From: Faecousia sp.
GTDB taxonomy: Bacteria; Bacillota; Clostridia; Oscillospirales; Oscillospiraceae
Assembly: GCA_045632785.1 (NCBI GenBank)
Contig: JAZQXK010000097.1
Coordinates: 1,536-65,535 of the forward strand
Length of the DNA: 64,000 bases
Direction: 5' to 3'
This document shows positions 935 to 60,128 of this stretch, in pieces (positions within the stretch are counted from its first letter, which is position 1; every line of letters starts with the position of its first letter). Made by a program: the position numbers and the translations under genes. Under the pieces are notes generated by a model. The model was not told the DNA's origin. It saw only the letters and a program-made list of their open reading frames with translations, and did no database searches.

Positions 935-1420
935 TTAAGCTTCTGTATTATTCTCAATAATTGTGGATTCAGGCTGCTCCGCAACTTGGACAGATTCCTT
1001 TTCTACAGGCTTCTTGGGTCTTCCGGCTCTCAAAATCAAAAAAACCACAACAACAGCTGCAATCAGAACCAAAACCATACCCAGCATCAGGCTTGCCTGC
1101 ACCCAGAAAGGAATAGTGTAGAGATAAGAAATCGTAACTGCCAGAACATTGGCAGTACACAGAGTGATCAGTGCTGTTGCAAACCTACCACAGTGGAACA
1201 ACAGCATCCGGAAGTTATCTGTTAAACCCTCAGTAACTTTGGGTGACTTTTCGAATTGCTCCAAAAAGGAAAGGCCCAAAGCGCTCATAACCAGAAAAGA
1301 TGACAAAACACAAAGTTGGGTTAGGGGCGCCACATCTTGAAACAGATACACAGTACCCAAAATTAACTGCAGGACACTGCCAAGGGTAAAAATACCCAGG
1401 GCAACCAGGATCTTTTTCAT
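935..1420 (-). CDS. Hypothetical multi-pass membrane protein
   Basis: ORF 935..1462. Start moved to MKKILVALG (ATG 1420, GGAGG upstream). About four hydrophobic segments and an acidic tail. Confidence 0.7.
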   Translation of the reverse strand: MKKILVALGIFTLGSVLQLILGTVYLFQDVAPLTQLCVLSSFLVMSALGLSFLEQFEKSPKVTEGLTDNFRMLLFHCGRFATALITLCTANVLAVTISYLYTIPFWVQASLMLGMVLVLIAAVVVVFLILRAGRPKKPVEKESVQVAEQPESTIIENNTEA

Positions 1421-1431
1421 AGTGCCTCCCA

Positions 1432-1884
1432 TCAGTTGAGCAGGTTGCGAATTTCTCCACAAAAAGTAGCAGCGGAATTCACATCACGCATGACCAAAAA
1501 AACAGTATCATCACCGGCAAGCGTGCCAACGACCACGGACATATTCATAGCATCAATGGCGGAAGCGGCAGCTGAAGCAAGACCGGGCAGAGTTTTAATG
1601 ACGATCATATTCTGTGCGTAATCATAGCTGGTAATACACTCCCGGAAGATGGTATTCAACTTGGTGGAGAACGCACTGTCACGGGTCCTTGCGGTGGCGG
1701 CATAACGGTATGTACCAAAGGAGGTCATCTCCTTGGTAATGCACAGTTCTTTAATATCTCTTGAAATGGTGGCCTGGGTGCTGGTGAAGCCATGTTCATG
1801 CAAGGCTTTCAGAAGCTGATCTTGATTCTCGATATCGCAGGTAGAAATGATTTCCATGATCTTTGCTTGTCTTTGCGCTTTCAT
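1432..1884 (-). CDS. argR: Arginine repressor
   Basis: RQAKIMEII..TQATISRDIKEL HTH and VGTLAGDDT arginine-binding motif. Start MKAQ at 1884 after GAGGTG. Confidence 0.96.
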   Translation of the reverse strand: MKAQRQAKIMEIISTCDIENQDQLLKALHEHGFTSTQATISRDIKELCITKEMTSFGTYRYAATARTRDSAFSTKLNTIFRECITSYDYAQNMIVIKTLPGLASAAASAIDAMNMSVVVGTLAGDDTVFLVMRDVNSAATFCGEIRNLLN

Positions 1885-2760: not shown

Positions 2761-3569
2761 AGTGTATTCTCTCCCAGTTTTTGATGGGCTTGCTTTACAA
2801 TATCTGCGGTATCAGGCTCAATCCCCTGAACATCAGCAAGAGTCAAGTGACCCAGAAACTCAATATTTCCCTCCGGACCTTTTACAGGAGAATAGGTAAG
2901 CCCAAGGATGTTAAACCTAAGTTCGTGAGCTAGGGAAACAAAGGCATCCAAAACCTCTTTATGCACAGCCTTATCCCGTACGACCCCCTTCTTGCCCACC
3001 TTTTCTTTTCCGGCCTCAAACTGAGGCTTAATCAGGCACAGAACCTGGCCCGTAGATTTCAAAAGATTCTTAATAGCAGGAAGGACAATTTTAAGCGAAA
3101 TAAAGGAAACATCCACAACAGACAGATCCAGAGGTTCTCCCAAGTCATTCGGTGTTACATAACGGATGTTTGTCCGCTCCATGGTTACAACTCTGGGATC
3201 AGAGCGGATGGCCCATGCGAGTTGACCATAGCCAACATCAATGGCAAACACTTTTTTGGCGCCATGCTGCAGCAAACAATCAGTAAACCCTCCAGTGGAA
3301 GCACCGGAATCGCTGCAAACATAACCGGTAGGGTCAACACCAAAGTCCCGCAAAGCTTTCTCCAACTTTAAGCCGCCTCTGCTGACATAGGGGCAAACAC
3401 TGCCTCTGACTTCAATAGGAGCATTATCTTCGAAGGACATACCTGCTTTATCGGCCTTTTGTCCATTTACAAACACAAGGCCACTCATAATTAAGGCCTG
3501 TGCTTTTGCTCTGGATTCTGCGTACCCCTGCTCCACAAGGAGTACATCCAACCGCTTTTTACTTTTCAC
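2757..3569 (-). CDS. tlyA: TlyA-family rRNA methyltransferase (S4 + FtsJ)
   Basis: KKRLDVLLVEQG, YVSRGGLKLEKAL, DVGYGQL and LIKPQFEAG motifs. Likely GTG start at 3569, overlapping the dxs stop. Confidence 0.95.
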   Translation of the reverse strand: MKSKKRLDVLLVEQGYAESRAKAQALIMSGLVFVNGQKADKAGMSFEDNAPIEVRGSVCPYVSRGGLKLEKALRDFGVDPTGYVCSDSGASTGGFTDCLLQHGAKKVFAIDVGYGQLAWAIRSDPRVVTMERTNIRYVTPNDLGEPLDLSVVDVSFISLKIVLPAIKNLLKSTGQVLCLIKPQFEAGKEKVGKKGVVRDKAVHKEVLDAFVSLAHELRFNILGLTYSPVKGPEGNIEFLGHLTLADVQGIEPDTADIVKQAHQKLGENTL

Positions 3570-5406
3570 GGCGAAAGACCTCCTCTGCTCTTCGTACAAT
3601 TGCCTGTGTATCCAGATTTAATAAATTATACAGCTCATCCACAGTACCGTGCGTGACAAAATGATCGCCTACATTTTGTGCCCCAAACACCACAGGAATG
3701 CCTCTTTGGCTTAACTTTTCAATGAGTTCATTGCTTACGCTGCCAACACCCATAGCTTCTTCAACAACCAGCAGCCTGCCAGTCTTGCGGACAGAATTAG
3801 TAATTGTTTCCATGTCCAGAGGCTTAATCGAACGCAGGCGAAGAACCTCTGCTTCGATGCCTCTCTCCCTGAGAAGTGCTGCTGCCTCCAGAACCTTATT
3901 GGTTAGTGTGCCATAGGTAACGATGGTAATATCCTTACCGATACAATGTACAGTTTCTCTGCCGGATGTAAGGTGTTTTCCGTCGCCGCCCCTGGGATAG
4001 CGGATGGCAACAGGCCCCTCGCACTTTTCAACAGCCCAGGTAAGCATTTCTTTTAGCTCTTTCCGGCTGCTGGGACAAAGGACGGTCAAACCAGGCATCT
4101 GGCGTAGGAAGCCAACATCAAATAGACCATGATGGGTTTCGCCATCGTCCCCGACAAGACCGGCTCGGTCAACAGCAAAAATAACATGGAGATGGAGCAT
4201 CGCAACATCTTGCATAATCATATCGTATGCTCTCTGCAGGAATGTTGAGTATACGGCTACCACGGGGATCATGCCCGCCTTTGCCAGTCCGCCGGCCATA
4301 GAGACTGCATGTCCCTCTGCAATACCCACATCAAAAGTGCGTTCAGGGTAGGCATTCTGGAAAGGAGACAGCCCTGTACCGGAAGGCATGGCAGCAGTAA
4401 TGGCACAAAGCCGGGGCTCTCTTTTTCCCAGCTCCACCATGGTTTCTCCGAAAGCTGAGGAAAAGTTGGGAGAAGATGACTTCTTTGTCCCCCCGGTCTT
4501 TGGATCAAAGGGAGCAATGCCATGGAACCGGCTGGGTTCTTTCTCTGCCGGTGCATATCCCCTTCCCTTTTGGGTGGTTACATGAAGCAGAACCGGACAA
4601 GCCATCTCTTTTGCTACCTGCAAAAGCTGAATCAGTCTTGGCAAATCATGTCCATCCACAGGCCCAATGTATTCGAAGCCCATGTTTTCAAATATGGTCT
4701 GTCTAAGGAACTGATTCTTGACCATATTCTTGAGTTTTCTGGTTACACGATAGACAAATTTTCCGCCAGGCACCTTGTGCATAAAGGACTTATAAGATCG
4801 CTTTTTATTAAAATAACCTGGCTTTGCACGGATGCGGGATAAGTGCTGTGCAATACCGCCTACATTTTGAGCAATAGACATCTTGTTGTCGTTAAGCACC
4901 ACAATAATAGGCTCACCGCTGGCTGCAGCATCATTTAACCCTTCGTAGGCTAGCCCACCGGTGGTGGCGCCGTCACCGATCAGGGCGATTACATTGTAAT
5001 TTTCTTTTTGCAAGGTTCTGGCCCTTGCCATACCAAGGGCAATGGAAACAGAGTTGGAGGCATGGCCTGCAACGAAAGAATCGGTAATGCTTTCAGAGGG
5101 CTTCGGGAAGCCTGCAATACCGCCAAAACGCCGCAGAGAAGAAAATTGATCTCTGCGGTCTGTAAGAATCTTATGCACATAGGACTGATGACCCACATCG
5201 AAAACCAGTCTGTCTGTTCTTGTGTCAAACACAGTTTCCAATGCAAGAGTCAATTCAACAGCCCCCAAATTGGAAGCCAGATGACCACCGGTTTCGGAAA
5301 CCTTTTCAACCAGAAAATCCCGAAGTTCCTGACAAAGGGACTGTTGCTCGTTCGGTTTCAGTTTTATCAGATCATCATGACCTTGAATTCTATCTAAAAT
5401 ACCCAA
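3559..5406 (-). CDS. dxs: 1-deoxy-D-xylulose-5-phosphate synthase
   Basis: GGHLASNLG, FDVGHQSYVHK, GDGA..G, LNDN, DVGIAE and DGETHHG motifs. Confidence 0.98.
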   Translation of the reverse strand: MGILDRIQGHDDLIKLKPNEQQSLCQELRDFLVEKVSETGGHLASNLGAVELTLALETVFDTRTDRLVFDVGHQSYVHKILTDRRDQFSSLRRFGGIAGFPKPSESITDSFVAGHASNSVSIALGMARARTLQKENYNVIALIGDGATTGGLAYEGLNDAAASGEPIIVVLNDNKMSIAQNVGGIAQHLSRIRAKPGYFNKKRSYKSFMHKVPGGKFVYRVTRKLKNMVKNQFLRQTIFENMGFEYIGPVDGHDLPRLIQLLQVAKEMACPVLLHVTTQKGRGYAPAEKEPSRFHGIAPFDPKTGGTKKSSSPNFSSAFGETMVELGKREPRLCAITAAMPSGTGLSPFQNAYPERTFDVGIAEGHAVSMAGGLAKAGMIPVVAVYSTFLQRAYDMIMQDVAMLHLHVIFAVDRAGLVGDDGETHHGLFDVGFLRQMPGLTVLCPSSRKELKEMLTWAVEKCEGPVAIRYPRGGDGKHLTSGRETVHCIGKDITIVTYGTLTNKVLEAAALLRERGIEAEVLRLRSIKPLDMETITNSVRKTGRLLVVEEAMGVGSVSNELIEKLSQRGIPVVFGAQNVGDHFVTHGTVDELYNLLNLDTQAIVRRAEEVFRREK

Positions 5407-5427: not shown

Positions 5428-6033
5428 TTATTTCTTTTGGCAGCCCTTATTTCTCCCTAAAGAGAAGATACTGCGAACCCAGTGAATAACCTTTGCAGTA
5501 GTAAAAACGATGGAGGTGCATGAATGGATCGCCATGCTCTTGCCAATTGCCTTGCCACCAACAGTAAGACCTGCAACAAGCGCAGACAGCGCAAGACTAA
5601 TAACATCTTCCGGAAGTCCTTGGAAGTTCATCAAAACTCTGGCTGTAATAGTAGCTGCTGCAGCACCGGAAACAACGCCGCAAATATCACCTACAACATC
5701 ATTACAAACAGAAGAAACCCGATCCGCATTGCGAAGCAGACGGATAGCTTCCGCAGCTCCGGGGACTTTCTTAGCTGCCATGGAATGAAAGGGGCGTTCT
5801 TCCGCAGAAGCTACGGCAACACCGACCACATCAAAAATAATACCTAAAAGTACTATGAGCAATAAAATCAGGCAGGCAACCACCATCCCGGAGGCTTCCA
5901 TCAAAAGATCAGAAGCGAAGGAAATCGTACCAGAAACCAAAATGGTTGCCAGAAAAACACCGATTGCCCAACTGGTATTGGACTTTTTTTGCTTTTTATC
6001 TTGTTTGCCTGGATGAGGATCAGCTTTAGCCAA
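5428..6033 (-). CDS. oapA: OLE-associated protein A (DUF21/CNNM-like membrane protein)
   Basis: GIIFDVVGVA, PFHSMAAKK and CNDVVGDICG (DxxxD at D112/D116) motifs. Immediately downstream of the OLE-like RNA and upstream of dxs, the established oapA position. TTG start after GAGGTG. Confidence 0.88.
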   Translation of the reverse strand: MAKADPHPGKQDKKQKKSNTSWAIGVFLATILVSGTISFASDLLMEASGMVVACLILLLIVLLGIIFDVVGVAVASAEERPFHSMAAKKVPGAAEAIRLLRNADRVSSVCNDVVGDICGVVSGAAAATITARVLMNFQGLPEDVISLALSALVAGLTVGGKAIGKSMAIHSCTSIVFTTAKVIHWVRSIFSLGRNKGCQKK

Positions 6034-6067
6034 TCGAGATGCACCTCTTTAATTGCAAAAATAGTAA

Positions 6068-6671
6068 GGCGGCGGCAGTCAGGGTAAACTTTACGGCTTA
6101 GGTCGGGTTGGTTTTCCCCACCGAGAACTCCCCGTTGCCGAAGGAGCGGTTTCCCTTTGATCTCGGCCTCCGGTTGTTACCAAGTCGGCTACCCGATTGC
6201 CACTGAGTCCGTACTGCAATCCCCTGACTGCCTGAACTACAGCCTAGGTGATTTCCACAGCAGAACATTCCAACTCTTAGCCTCTTTTGCAGATATAGTT
6301 TCCGGGGCGATAGTTGCTTTAACCCTTGGCCACGAGCAAAGAACTTTTTTCCCCTTCCCCGCATACCCACGCAAGGCAGGCTACACTGCACACAGCACGC
6401 GATTCTGCGCACTGCAATGCAGGTTCACATCTGTTTCGTACGCGGTCTTGGAGCCACAGGGCTCGCCATAGCCGTCGCACAATAGCAGGTCTCCACGGAA
6501 ACCGGGTCGTATACTCCATGCCATTGGAGTGCGCCCGGGATCCTTAACCCCCAGCACCCACCCCAAACTGGGCGTAAGCAGCAGGCACAAGGGACTTCAT
6601 CGATATGCCCTTCAAAGGATTTTTAGGCCCTTCTTGGGAGTTGGCAGTTCCGACTAGGATACTGCGCCGCC
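6068..6671 (-). ncRNA. ole: OLE RNA (ornate, large, extremophilic)
   Basis: About 604 nt of GC-rich, hairpin-dense sequence without a credible ORF. The ends pair (5' GGCGGC-GCAGU ... ACUGC-C-GCCGCC 3'). The 5' GCAGUAUCCUAGUCGG and 3' CCCUGACUGC resemble OLE termini as I recall them. Length and ispA-ole-oapA-dxs synteny are those of ole. Confidence 0.88.
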
Positions 6672-6677
6672 AAATAC

Positions 6678-6706
6678 ATCATAACACATAATTTATGAAT
6701 ATACAA
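6678..6706 (-). promoter_or_regulatory. SigA-type promoter of ole
   Basis: TTGTAT-17 nt-TATGAT with a TG extension. The -10 box ends 6 nt before the predicted RNA 5' end. Confidence 0.65.
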
Positions 6707-6748
6707 GGGTTTATGCAAAATTTCTTCTACATAAACCCTTGTAAAATC

Positions 6749-7624
6749 TTATTTACTTCTGGAAATCAGGTAATTTGACAGTTCTTCCATAAAAACGTAG
6801 TCCGAGAATGTATGCAGGGCATTGACTGCAAGGCTTGTATGCTCTGCGACCATTTCTTCACACTTTTTTAAGCCAAAGAGACGACAGAAGGTGTTTTTTG
6901 CTTCATCTGTGCCAACTGCCTTACCAAGTTCCGTCGGATCGCCGACCACATCCAGGATATCATCCCGAATTTGGAAAGCAAGCCCCAGATTAGCCGCAAA
7001 GTCGGACGCGGCCTCTATTTGCTTTTCTGATCCGCAACCGGCAATCACACCCAAAATACAGGCGGCACGGATCAAAGCACCGGTCTTACGACTTTGAATG
7101 TCTAATATCTCCTGTTTGGTACATTCACGTGTTTCGGCAGTAATATCCAAAATCTGTCCGCCTACCATACCCAACTCGCCGGCACACCGGGAAAGCATCG
7201 ATACTGCCCTTACAATGGTGTCTGAAGGTAAAGGTGCTTTTGTCAACCAGCCAAAAGAGGCGGTAAGCAATGCATCGCCAGCCAAAACAGCAGTAGCCTC
7301 CCCATACACCTTATGATTTGTAGGCATTCCCCGGCGGAAGTCATCATCGTCCATACAAGGAAGATCGTCATGGATCAAACTATAGGTCTGGATCATCTCC
7401 ACAGCAGCGGCAAAAGGCATGGCATCTTCGTAAGTACCGCCGCACATCCTGCAAAACTCCAGCGTCATTACAGGACGAAGTCGTTTTCCTCCCGCAAGTA
7501 AGCTATAGCGCATAGAATCAAAAAGTGCCTGCTGAGGCTCTGTGGGGTAAATAAAGCAATTCTCTTTCAGGTAATTTTCAATTAGGGCTTGGCGGACCTT
7601 CAGTTCTTCAGCAAAATTATTCAT
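6749..7624 (-). CDS. ispA: Geranyltranstransferase / FPP synthase
   Basis: GGKRLRP, LIHDDLPCMDDDDFRRG and FQIRDDILD motifs. Start moved to MNNF at 7624. Confidence 0.96.
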   Translation of the reverse strand: MNNFAEELKVRQALIENYLKENCFIYPTEPQQALFDSMRYSLLAGGKRLRPVMTLEFCRMCGGTYEDAMPFAAAVEMIQTYSLIHDDLPCMDDDDFRRGMPTNHKVYGEATAVLAGDALLTASFGWLTKAPLPSDTIVRAVSMLSRCAGELGMVGGQILDITAETRECTKQEILDIQSRKTGALIRAACILGVIAGCGSEKQIEAASDFAANLGLAFQIRDDILDVVGDPTELGKAVGTDEAKNTFCRLFGLKKCEEMVAEHTSLAVNALHTFSDYVFMEELSNYLISRSK

Positions 7625-7856
7625 GGAATGCCACCTCCGATTCCTCCGGCTGTCCGTCTGCGCCAACAGTAATCATAGTAATTTTCTGTTGTGCAGACTC
7701 TAAAAGTTCATCACACCGACGAACAAGGGCAGTCCCCTCTTCCAGCAGCTTTAAGGATTCTTCCAGAGGGAGATCGCCCTGCTCCATTAAGCGCACAATC
7801 TCTTCCAATCGATTCATGGATGCTTCAAAGGTAGGCTCTGATTTCTTCTTAGCCAT
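7617..7856 (-). CDS. xseB: Exodeoxyribonuclease VII small subunit
   Basis: FEASMNRLEEIVRLME.GDLPLEESLKLLEEG motif. Follows xseA. Confidence 0.95.
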   Translation of the reverse strand: MAKKKSEPTFEASMNRLEEIVRLMEQGDLPLEESLKLLEEGTALVRRCDELLESAQQKITMITVGADGQPEESEVAFHE

Positions 7857-9075
7857 GCTTTTCTTCCTCCTTCAATTCAGTGATATCTGTAACGTTGGCT
7901 CGGATCAAGCCCTCCGCCAGTTGGATAGAGAGGTGTTCACCTACAGCGGTTTGTTTGGCCGAGCGAAGAATATCACCTTTATGATTCTGCACTACAGCAT
8001 AGCCCCGAGCTATGACTTTGAGGGGGCTCATAGCATCCAGGGATGCAGTCAGGCCAATGAACTTTTGCCGCTTTTGCGCAGTTTGCTTATCCATGGAAGC
8101 TGTTAGCCTTCTATGGAGATTATCTAAATACAGCCGCTTGTTGTCAAACAGCCCCTCCGGGCTCCTTAGGATTCTGGAACTCTTCAGGATCTTTAGCTTG
8201 TTCTCTGCGCCACGGAATTGCCTGCTGACAGATGACAGCATCGATCTGTTATATGCCTGCATCAAGGCCAAAAGCTCCTCTCGTTCTGGAACGGCGAGTT
8301 CAGCGCCATTGGAGGGCGTTGCTGCCCGAAGATCCGCTACATAGTCACAGATGGTCACATCCGGCTCATGTCCGACAGCTGAAATAATGGGTATTTCGGA
8401 ATCATACACAGCCCTTGCAACGATCTCCTCATTGAAAGCCCACAAATCCTCCATACTGCCGCCGCCTCTGCCGGTAATAATCAGGTCGCCTACGTGATGG
8501 GCGTTGGCATAGCGGATGGCAGAGGCTATCTCCCCTGGGGCTTCCGCACCCTGTACCCGAACAGGAAGGATGGACACTGCGGCAATGGGGTATCTCTTAT
8601 GCAGAATGCGAAGCATATCCTGAATAGCTGCTCCCGCAGGGGATGTAATAATGACGATCTTCCGGGGATATTTAGGGATTGGCTTCTTATGCTCCCGGTC
8701 AAACAAGCCCTGCTCTTCCAGTTTCTTTTTTAGCTGTTCAAACGCAACGTGGAGATCGCCCTTTCCATCATGCATAATTCCTGTGCAATAAAGCTGATAT
8801 GCACCGTCTCTGGGGTATACGGATATGCGGCCCATAGCCAGAACCTGCATCCCGTTTTCCGGCCGAAACCGCAGACGAAACGCACTGGACTTAAACATAA
8901 CACATTTTAACGCCCCGCCGGCATCCTTCAAACTAAAATAGTGGTGTCCGGATGGGTATACCTTATAATTGCTGATCTCGCCACGGATACAAAGCCCAGA
9001 AAGCAGTAGATCATTGTCCATCATATGCTGAATGTAGCTGTTAACTGCGCTGACTGATAAAATCTCCTGCTGCAT
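7849..9075 (-). CDS. xseA: Exodeoxyribonuclease VII large subunit
   Basis: GEISN..SGHHYFSLKD, GRGGGSMEDLWAFN, SAVGHE.D and ATPSNGAE motifs. Confidence 0.97.
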   Translation of the reverse strand: MQQEILSVSAVNSYIQHMMDNDLLLSGLCIRGEISNYKVYPSGHHYFSLKDAGGALKCVMFKSSAFRLRFRPENGMQVLAMGRISVYPRDGAYQLYCTGIMHDGKGDLHVAFEQLKKKLEEQGLFDREHKKPIPKYPRKIVIITSPAGAAIQDMLRILHKRYPIAAVSILPVRVQGAEAPGEIASAIRYANAHHVGDLIITGRGGGSMEDLWAFNEEIVARAVYDSEIPIISAVGHEPDVTICDYVADLRAATPSNGAELAVPEREELLALMQAYNRSMLSSVSRQFRGAENKLKILKSSRILRSPEGLFDNKRLYLDNLHRRLTASMDKQTAQKRQKFIGLTASLDAMSPLKVIARGYAVVQNHKGDILRSAKQTAVGEHLSIQLAEGLIRANVTDITELKEEEKHG

Positions 9076-10000
9076 TTTGCTCCTCCAGTATGTGCCACGC
9101 CAGAACAGCTACGCCAAGTGCGTTATCTGTTGCATACTGGGGTGGACAGAATACACAATCATACGGCTCCATGATCTTCCGAAGCATGGAATTGGAGGCA
9201 ACACCTCCGGAAAAAACCACCGGCAATCCGGGGAATCGGTCAAGCGCATTCTTTGTTGCTTTTTCTACGGCCCTGCAGACACACCTAAGTGCATAACCTG
9301 CGGTCTCTTCTTGGCTGCAGGTGTTACTCAGATACTCCTGCACCTTATTTTGTACACCAGACAAGGAAAAATATGTGTCAGGACACTTCACACGGAAATA
9401 GTCCTTGTTTTGTGCTGCTTTGCTCAATTCATCCAATGTTTTTCCTGCAGGAAAAGGCAGCTTTAATAGCTGACCGGTGCGGTCAATAAGCTGGCCTGCG
9501 GAAATATCTGTTGTGCCGCCAAGGATAGTGCAGTTTAAGTTACTGCCCATGGGTTCAACCAATAATAATTCTGTAGTCCCACCGGATAAATGCCATGCCA
9601 AAAAAGGCTCTTTGCGCAATTCCATGCACTGAGCCGAGCGCAAAACCGCAGCCAAATGACCCTGCTGATGAGAAACCTCGATCAGCGGAACATGAAGTAA
9701 CTGGGCAATGGTTTTTGCGTGTCCGATTCCAGCCAAAAAGCAAGGCATATAAGAACCTTCAACTGCTCTGGGTCTAGTGCTTACACCGACTGCACGAATT
9801 TCGGAAGGATCTACATTGAAAAAAAGCCTGTCGGTAAGTTCCGGCAGGCCAATTACATGATTGAATAGTGCATCGGACTGACGAAGACCCAACTCCCCCT
9901 CCTTCACCGGCAGTAGCTTGGACTGATTGTCCCATTGCTCGCCATCATACCAGGCAACGGAGGTGGTATAGTTACTGGTGTCAAATCCTAGTACCTTCAT
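9041..10000 (-). CDS. TsaD/Kae1-like (M22/glycoprotease-family) protein, atypical
   Basis: GFDTSNYTTS N-terminus, HQQGH metal motif, LSGGTTE, GGVASN and ATDNA motifs. Confidence 0.8.
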   Translation of the reverse strand: MKVLGFDTSNYTTSVAWYDGEQWDNQSKLLPVKEGELGLRQSDALFNHVIGLPELTDRLFFNVDPSEIRAVGVSTRPRAVEGSYMPCFLAGIGHAKTIAQLLHVPLIEVSHQQGHLAAVLRSAQCMELRKEPFLAWHLSGGTTELLLVEPMGSNLNCTILGGTTDISAGQLIDRTGQLLKLPFPAGKTLDELSKAAQNKDYFRVKCPDTYFSLSGVQNKVQEYLSNTCSQEETAGYALRCVCRAVEKATKNALDRFPGLPVVFSGGVASNSMLRKIMEPYDCVFCPPQYATDNALGVAVLAWHILEEQNAAGDFISQRS

Positions 10001-16767: not shown

Positions 16768-16843
<76 letters not shown>

Positions 16844-59920: not shown

Positions 59921-60128
59921 TGATATATCGCTTGTGCGATATGATATACGGTGTTGCCGTATGATATACTTGCTTCGCAAGCATGATATAATATCCGTTC
60001 CTACATACGCGAAGCGTATATCATCGCACGATAGTGCGATATCATATCGAAGATATATCGCCCGTTCTGGCAGGAACGGATATCATTGAAAAAAGTCACC
60101 TTTGTCAGTAGACAAAAGTGACTTTTTT
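59914..60128. repeat. Multi-hairpin palindromic element B (ATGATATA-type) plus terminal TGTC/GACA hairpin
   Basis: 13-bp terminal IR TTTTCAATGATAT/ATATCATTGAAAA, ATGATATA x4, inverted units x4, and about 7 small hairpins. Ends in AAAAAAGTCACCTTTGTC..GACAAAAGTGACTTTTTT, which doubles as the tRNA terminator. Confidence 0.8.

Follow-up and report, generated by a model that had tools for sequence, protein, structure and literature searches.

A full-length OLE RNA gene and its partner gene oapA, preceded by a conserved promoter-like element, in a gut Faecousia genome

Introduction

OLE RNA is among the largest structured RNAs of bacteria that still lack an assigned biochemical function. In the alkaliphile Halalkalibacterium (Bacillus) halodurans, OLE RNA dimerizes and is held by the protein OapA at the membrane, which the RNA possibly spans (PMC12265935, PMC11332333, PMC9723947, PMC7936274). 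Two further proteins, OapB and OapC, bind defined sites of the RNA and are needed for its function (PMC7936274, PMC9723947). The H. halodurans OLE particle helps cells to grow when Mg2+, alcohol, cold or the carbon source causes stress (PMC12265935, PMC11332333, PMC9723947, PMC7936274), and a single polycistronic RNA covers the gene cluster in which the OLE gene lies (PMC12265935). An Infernal scan of GTDB yielded 2,822 OLE RNAs in Bacillota, including anaerobic and gut lineages (Fernando and Breaker 2024, PMC11332333). According to the same study, OLE correlates with OapA, OapB and OapC and anticorrelates with MpfA; OapA is weakly homologous to the MpfA CNNM domain, and its DxxxD motif is distinctive, having no counterpart in CNNM domains (PMC11332333).

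A 64,000-nucleotide stretch of DNA from Faecousia sp., referred to below as the window, was analysed here. The original prediction for this DNA had placed an OLE RNA gene with its own promoter between ispA and oapA, and had suggested that this copy of the system, taken to be divergent, might be new.

Results

The ispA-oapA gap contains a full-length OLE RNA gene

The gap between ispA and oapA (6034-6748) is 715 nt in length, and the list of open reading frames showed only short frames of 66-104 aa in it, on both strands. It is thus long and noncoding, as had been predicted; the predicted GC-richness is real but mild, as the OLE stretch has a G+C content of 54.3%, whereas the window as a whole has 48.5% and the genome 51.5%. 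A covariance-model search had been proposed as a check. When the Rfam covariance models were run over the whole window, OLE RNA (RF01071, gathering score 50 bits) was matched at 6053-6686 on the minus strand with a score of 434.9 bits and an E value of 2.2e-124, and it was the sole Rfam family matched in the gap. The match, which includes a few flanking model bases, spans positions 1-616 of the 616 in the model and is untruncated. A scan of the complete assembly (2.26 Mb, 190 contigs) reproduced this match and revealed no second one, so that the OLE copy number in the genome is one. Together with the OapA features found directly downstream (see below), the RF01071 match supports the identification of the locus as an OLE/OapA system.

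The ends of the RNA were also expected to base-pair. A closing helix of 7 bp was found, in which GGCGGCG (6671-6665) pairs with CGCCGCC (6074-6068), and the outer limits of this helix, 6671 and 6068, are exactly the ends that had been predicted. The mature OLE RNA bounded by the helix would therefore be about 604 nt in length (6068-6671, minus strand). In an alignment of the window copy with 20 related OLE genes, all 147 of the 147 cells of the closing helix contained standard pairs, and changes on both sides were seen in five of the seven pairs. Values as high as these did not occur in any of 500 shuffles, and the pairing collapsed when the partner columns were shifted by one or two positions. 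Covariation was tested separately for the closing helix only, and the other OLE helices rest on the model score.

The RF01071 alignment also showed that the conserved bases on either side of P5, CGAUGAAG... and ...CUGGGGGUUAAGG, which make up the kink-turn for OapC (binding sites according to PMC7936274 and PMC9723947), agree with the consensus, and that P13 is capped by a GCAA loop of the GNRA type, with a one-base gap in the 3' strand of P13. Both features are shared with the H. halodurans RNA. Using the variant definitions of PMC11332333, the RNA belongs to the full-length type and not to the reduced variants 1 or 2, as P7-P9 and the OapB site in P13 are present; model region 200-380 is matched as well, with extra loop bases and no deletions. 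The departures from the Rfam consensus are terminal-loop insertions of 17 nt and 8 nt, which make some terminal loops longer than in the model, and the absence of one small hairpin (model positions ~425-436). The insertions and the missing hairpin are common to the relatives in the 21-sequence alignment, so that the loss of the hairpin is a feature of the lineage and not a sign of decay.

The downstream gene encodes OapA

The gene following the RNA, oapA (5428-6033, minus strand), starts with TTG and encodes a helical membrane protein of 201 aa, with hydrophobic segments at approximately residues 19-45, 47-79, 113-135 and 140-164. The DxxxD motif predicted for this gene at D112/D116 was found as DVVGD (codons at 5686-5700, minus strand). 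It is the sole motif of this kind in the protein and lies inside an invariant block, CNDVxGDICG. The motif was invariant in 81 of 81 relatives, and in 31 of 31 sequences of a second set. More than 536 relatives of OapA were found, the best of them being 80% identical. In most of the relatives examined the start codon, at the corresponding position, is TTG or GTG, and the relatives have an xKxDP motif near the N-terminus in common. The start of oapA may therefore be misplaced by gene-calling programs with a preference for ATG.

Consistent with published observations on OapA, the similarity of the protein to the Mg2+ transporters of the MpfA/CorB/CNNM type (DUF21) is weak. The match to the Pfam CNNM model reached 23.4 bits (E 5e-5), which is below the cut-off of 28.4. 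An AlphaFold2 model built with 31 sequences was all-helical with a mean pLDDT of 74, a moderate value, and the four best PDB matches of this model in Foldseek were all to the archaeal CNNM protein MtCorB (7m1t/7m1u), a first rank which was non-significant (E 0.12, TM 0.34). Unlike the transporters, OapA has neither the CBS pair nor the CorC/HlyC domain, and it carries the DxxxD motif that is absent from CNNM domains (PMC11332333).

Gene neighbourhood

On the minus strand the genes are ordered asp23, nusB, a TsaD-family gene, xseA, xseB, ispA, ole, oapA, dxs, tlyA, nadK, argR, a gene for a small membrane protein, and recN. The upstream neighbour ispA (6749-7666, minus strand) encodes farnesyl diphosphate synthase (polyprenyl_synt 195.7 bits; NF045485 308 bits), and the downstream neighbour dxs (3559-5406, minus strand) scored 672.8 bits with TIGR00204. 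Between nusB and xseA, the TsaD-family gene (9041-10000, minus strand; 319 aa, 91 bits) occupies a position often taken by folD in other species. A hydrophobic ORF of 175 aa (935-1462, minus strand) between argR and recN had no match in Pfam or NCBIfam. A cluster of this kind is the canonical OLE gene cluster of H. halodurans and other species (PMC12265935), and ispA, dxs, tlyA, nadK, argR, recN, xseA/B and nusB are all shared with that of H. halodurans. Elsewhere in the window, a tRNA gene was found at 16771-16843 (minus strand, 72.6 bits), with the anticodon GGU (Thr) read from the alignment. A borderline match to Gut-1 RNA at 60013-60088 (minus strand; 51.2 bits against a gathering score of 50) is consistent with a gut origin.

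Candidate genes for OapB and OapC, and the absence of an MpfA match

The genome search for oapB and oapC, which had been suggested with the original prediction, produced a candidate for each, at the usual positions in ribosomal operons as in H. halodurans. The OapC (YbxF) candidate is a 93-aa protein encoded on contig C50 (413-694, plus strand) directly upstream of rpsL-rpsG-fusA. Its best PDB matches were to YbxF of B. subtilis (4lck/3v7e; E 2.6e-14), and a glycine that is mutated in a published suppressor is aligned (VVGVKQ with IIGTKQ). The best NCBIfam model was PRK13602 (L7Ae-like) with 78.7 bits, below its cut-off of 113, while the model of the paralogue YlxQ gave 19.6 bits. One further weak L7Ae match was present in the genome, in a 253-aa frame on contig C4 (18.8 bits).

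The OapB (YbzG) candidate, 96 aa, is encoded on contig C103 (15052-15342, plus strand) in the gene order secY-adk-map-candidate-infA-rpmJ-rpsM. In Bacillus subtilis, ybzG is likewise located between map and infA. The candidate was not found by every route. No OapB was detected in the genome with the Pfam KOW model (PF00467), the sole locus that it matched, on contig C103, being probably rplX/L24, and two patterns based on Bacillus YbzG found nothing in the genome. It came from a looser motif pattern and was then compared with the PDB, where its best match was OapB itself (7k9b), a weak one of 25 bits (E 1.4e-4; residues 4-84 with 5-86). The Gly-Arg loop and a conserved glycine are aligned (AGRD with KGRD; ANGKDR with ADGDKR), and the candidate had no match among the Pfam and NCBIfam models.

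No MpfA/CNNM protein above cut-off was found in the genome, a metagenome-assembled genome of 190 contigs that is 94.5% complete, for which absence is not proof. Besides OapA there was one other weak CNNM match, on contig C164, which was considered as MpfA and rejected, since the protein is YidC. The lack of an MpfA match in a genome that carries OLE fits the published anticorrelation of OLE with MpfA.

Distribution among relatives

All 20 related oapA loci had a full-length OLE RNA gene directly upstream, in the same ole-oapA order and with scores of 404-461 bits. Among 121 Oscillospiraceae genomes sampled, OLE was present in 33, corresponding to 32 of 120 genera or about a quarter, and the full or nearly full-length matches in this family sample had scores of about 355-505 bits. 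The score of the window copy (435 bits) lies inside both ranges, and the copy is thus mid-range and typical, not divergent. The suggestion of a divergent and perhaps new copy does not hold for this reason, and also because OLE RNAs of gut and anaerobic bacteria have already been catalogued (PMC11332333). Metagenome-assembled genomes of Faecousia and other Oscillospiraceae from human and animal guts supplied the closest relatives of OapA. As Faecousia belongs to the Oscillospiraceae (Bacillota; Clostridia) and the host is thus a gut member of this family, the view that it is a mesophilic anaerobe, which had also been put forward, is reasonable. Such a host agrees with those usual for OLE, which are Bacillota and typically anaerobes or extremophiles.

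One contig labelled Barnesiella intestinihominis (Bacteroidota), CAVJLG010000040.1 (locus L086, 2286-3558), carried a full-length OLE RNA gene (442.8 bits) and an oapA that is 49% identical to that of the window. This is probably a mis-binned Bacillota contig; similar OLE matches outside the Bacillota were noted by Fernando and Breaker (2024, PMC11332333).

A conserved promoter-like element and the flanks of the RNA gene

For a comparison of the promoter region, 21 related loci were anchored on the conserved sequence GCAGTAT. A promoter-like element (6678-6706, minus strand) was recognised only through this comparison of relatives. It consists of a -35 hexamer TTGTAT (6706-6701), a spacer of 17 nt and an extended -10 sequence, TGT-TATGAT (6686-6678). 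The same layout, a -35 block and a variable spacer followed by TGnTAtnAT, was present in 20 of the 21 relatives. From the end of the extended -10 sequence it is 6 nt to where the closing helix begins, and the predicted start is near 6671. A strict sigma-70 consensus scan reported neither a promoter nor a terminator at the borders of OLE, and TTGTAT matches the -35 consensus at three of six bases. The predicted promoter thus stands as a promoter-like element that is conserved among relatives, but it is not called by consensus.

Over the -35 region there is a 12-nt block, CTTGTATATTCA (6696-6707, minus strand), which occurs exactly or with 1-2 mismatches in 20 of 21 relatives, whereas the neighbouring sequence varies; it is nearly invariant among species whose OapA proteins are about 50-80% identical. 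Enrichment of CTTGTATATTCA elsewhere in the genome was not found, as there were 8 sites with at most one mismatch compared with about 10 expected, and thus there is no sign of a regulon. A reading of CTTGTATATTCA as an ArgR box was set aside: its ATTCA half-site resembles ARG boxes and argR is part of the cluster, but a full box is not present.

Just after the stop codon of ispA, a strong hairpin with a 19-bp stem was found (6702-6743, minus strand; -27.3 kcal/mol, z = -9.3). It is terminator-like but without a clean U-tract, and its 3' arm overlaps the -35 block. Judged by eye, two close relatives (L007 and L011) have different bases in the stem but preserve it. At the other end, the spacing between OLE and oapA is only 34 nt and includes the ribosome-binding site AAAGAGGTG (6042-6050, minus strand), which is separated by 8 nt from the TTG codon that begins oapA; the consensus scan found no terminator-like site between 6034 and 6067. 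Given this short spacing and the lack of a terminator, oapA is probably read from the same transcript as OLE.

Discussion

The RNA encoded at 6053-6686 and OapA encoded at 5428-6033 almost certainly make up an intact, functional member of the OLE system. Some features of the host could be taken to mean that the OLE gene is a decaying, non-functional relic in a reduced gut genome: the genome is small, at 2.26 Mb, the model hairpin at ~425-436 is missing, and variant OLE RNAs that lack parts and partners have been described from reduced lineages of the gut (PMC11332333). However, the window RNA is matched over its full length with the conserved nucleotides intact, compensatory changes keep the helices across relatives (as tested for the closing helix), the intact oapA encodes an invariant DxxxD, the genome has candidates for oapB and oapC, and the small hairpin is missing clade-wide, all of which makes a relic highly improbable. 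It is still harder to maintain that the gap is not OLE at all but a coding region, an oapA leader or riboswitch, or another large RNA class. The short ORFs of 66-104 aa that can be drawn on both strands would allow for the first of these possibilities, yet the related loci keep the RNA structure and no reading frame, and OLE, with 435 bits over the whole model, is the one Rfam family matched there; there is hardly any chance that this explanation is correct.

How the RNA is expressed can be stated with less assurance. We favour a dedicated promoter for OLE, with a start near 6671, as the probable arrangement. Alternatively, OLE could lack its own promoter and be cut from a long operon transcript starting upstream, in the nusB/xseA/ispA region, in which case the conserved block would be a processing or terminator/antiterminator signal. 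A dedicated promoter need not exist, since in H. halodurans one polycistronic RNA spans the cluster (PMC12265935), and both the silence of the consensus scan and the poor match of TTGTAT to consensus are in keeping with such a transcript. On the other hand, TGnTAtnAT stands at a fixed distance from the closing helix and is preceded by the -35 block at 17 nt; both are conserved in 20 of 21 relatives, amid a spacer and surroundings that vary freely. A 19-bp hairpin directly after ispA would also hinder read-through. Taken together, these observations make a purely read-through origin possible but rather unlikely. It is also possible that the dedicated promoter and processing from a read-through transcript are both in use. 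A more elaborate proposal is that the ole-oapA pair of this clade is its own transcription unit, insulated from ispA by the hairpin and driven by the extended -10 promoter, with CTTGTATATTCA as the operator of a stress regulator. The conservation of CTTGTATATTCA exceeds what recognition by sigma-A needs, and a regulator setting the levels of the OLE particle in response to stress could use the block as its operator; the complete proposal is nevertheless doubtful.

By analogy with H. halodurans, the RNA of about 600 nt would fold into an ornate structure, with its two ends brought together in the closing helix, and the small CNNM-like membrane protein OapA would bind this RNA and hold it at the membrane, its paired aspartates (D112/D116 here) being presumably essential for function. 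OapB, a KOW-motif protein, would dock on the P12.2/P13 GNRA hairpin, and OapC, the L7Ae-like YbxF, would bind a kink-turn beside P5. The particle would be expected to help cells under stress caused by Mg2+, alcohols, cold or poor carbon sources. As far as the sequence indicates, OLE and oapA of this clade would be transcribed from the dedicated extended -10 promoter just after the ispA hairpin.

The resemblance to H. halodurans thus includes a full-length OLE RNA of about 600 nt with an oapA carrying DxxxD immediately downstream. The differences are that the host here is a mesophilic gut anaerobe, whereas H. halodurans is an alkaliphile, and that ole is preceded here by a hairpin resembling a terminator and by the conserved promoter-like element, while in H. 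halodurans transcription treats the cluster as one unit. In comparison with the full-length OLE RNAs from GTDB (PMC11332333), no substantive difference was seen: P7-P9 and the OapB site are present, the host belongs to the Bacillota, OapA and candidate OapB and OapC co-occur, and MpfA was not found. As OLE has already been catalogued across the Bacillota, the present locus is a rediscovery of a known system and typical of a class for which many members are on record.

Comparative data grow with every intact locus that has all the partner genes, and otherwise the value of the present one is its correct annotation. A mesophilic gut member of the Oscillospiraceae keeps the full-length RNA, the DxxxD motif of OapA and the OapB- and OapC-like genes, with no MpfA found, which is the pattern expected from published phylogenetic profiling. 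The promoter block and the hairpin are a small detail at the level of the clade and leave knowledge of the OLE class unchanged; within that clade, the conserved promoter-like block and the ispA hairpin could be of help in expressing or regulating OLE in gut Clostridia.
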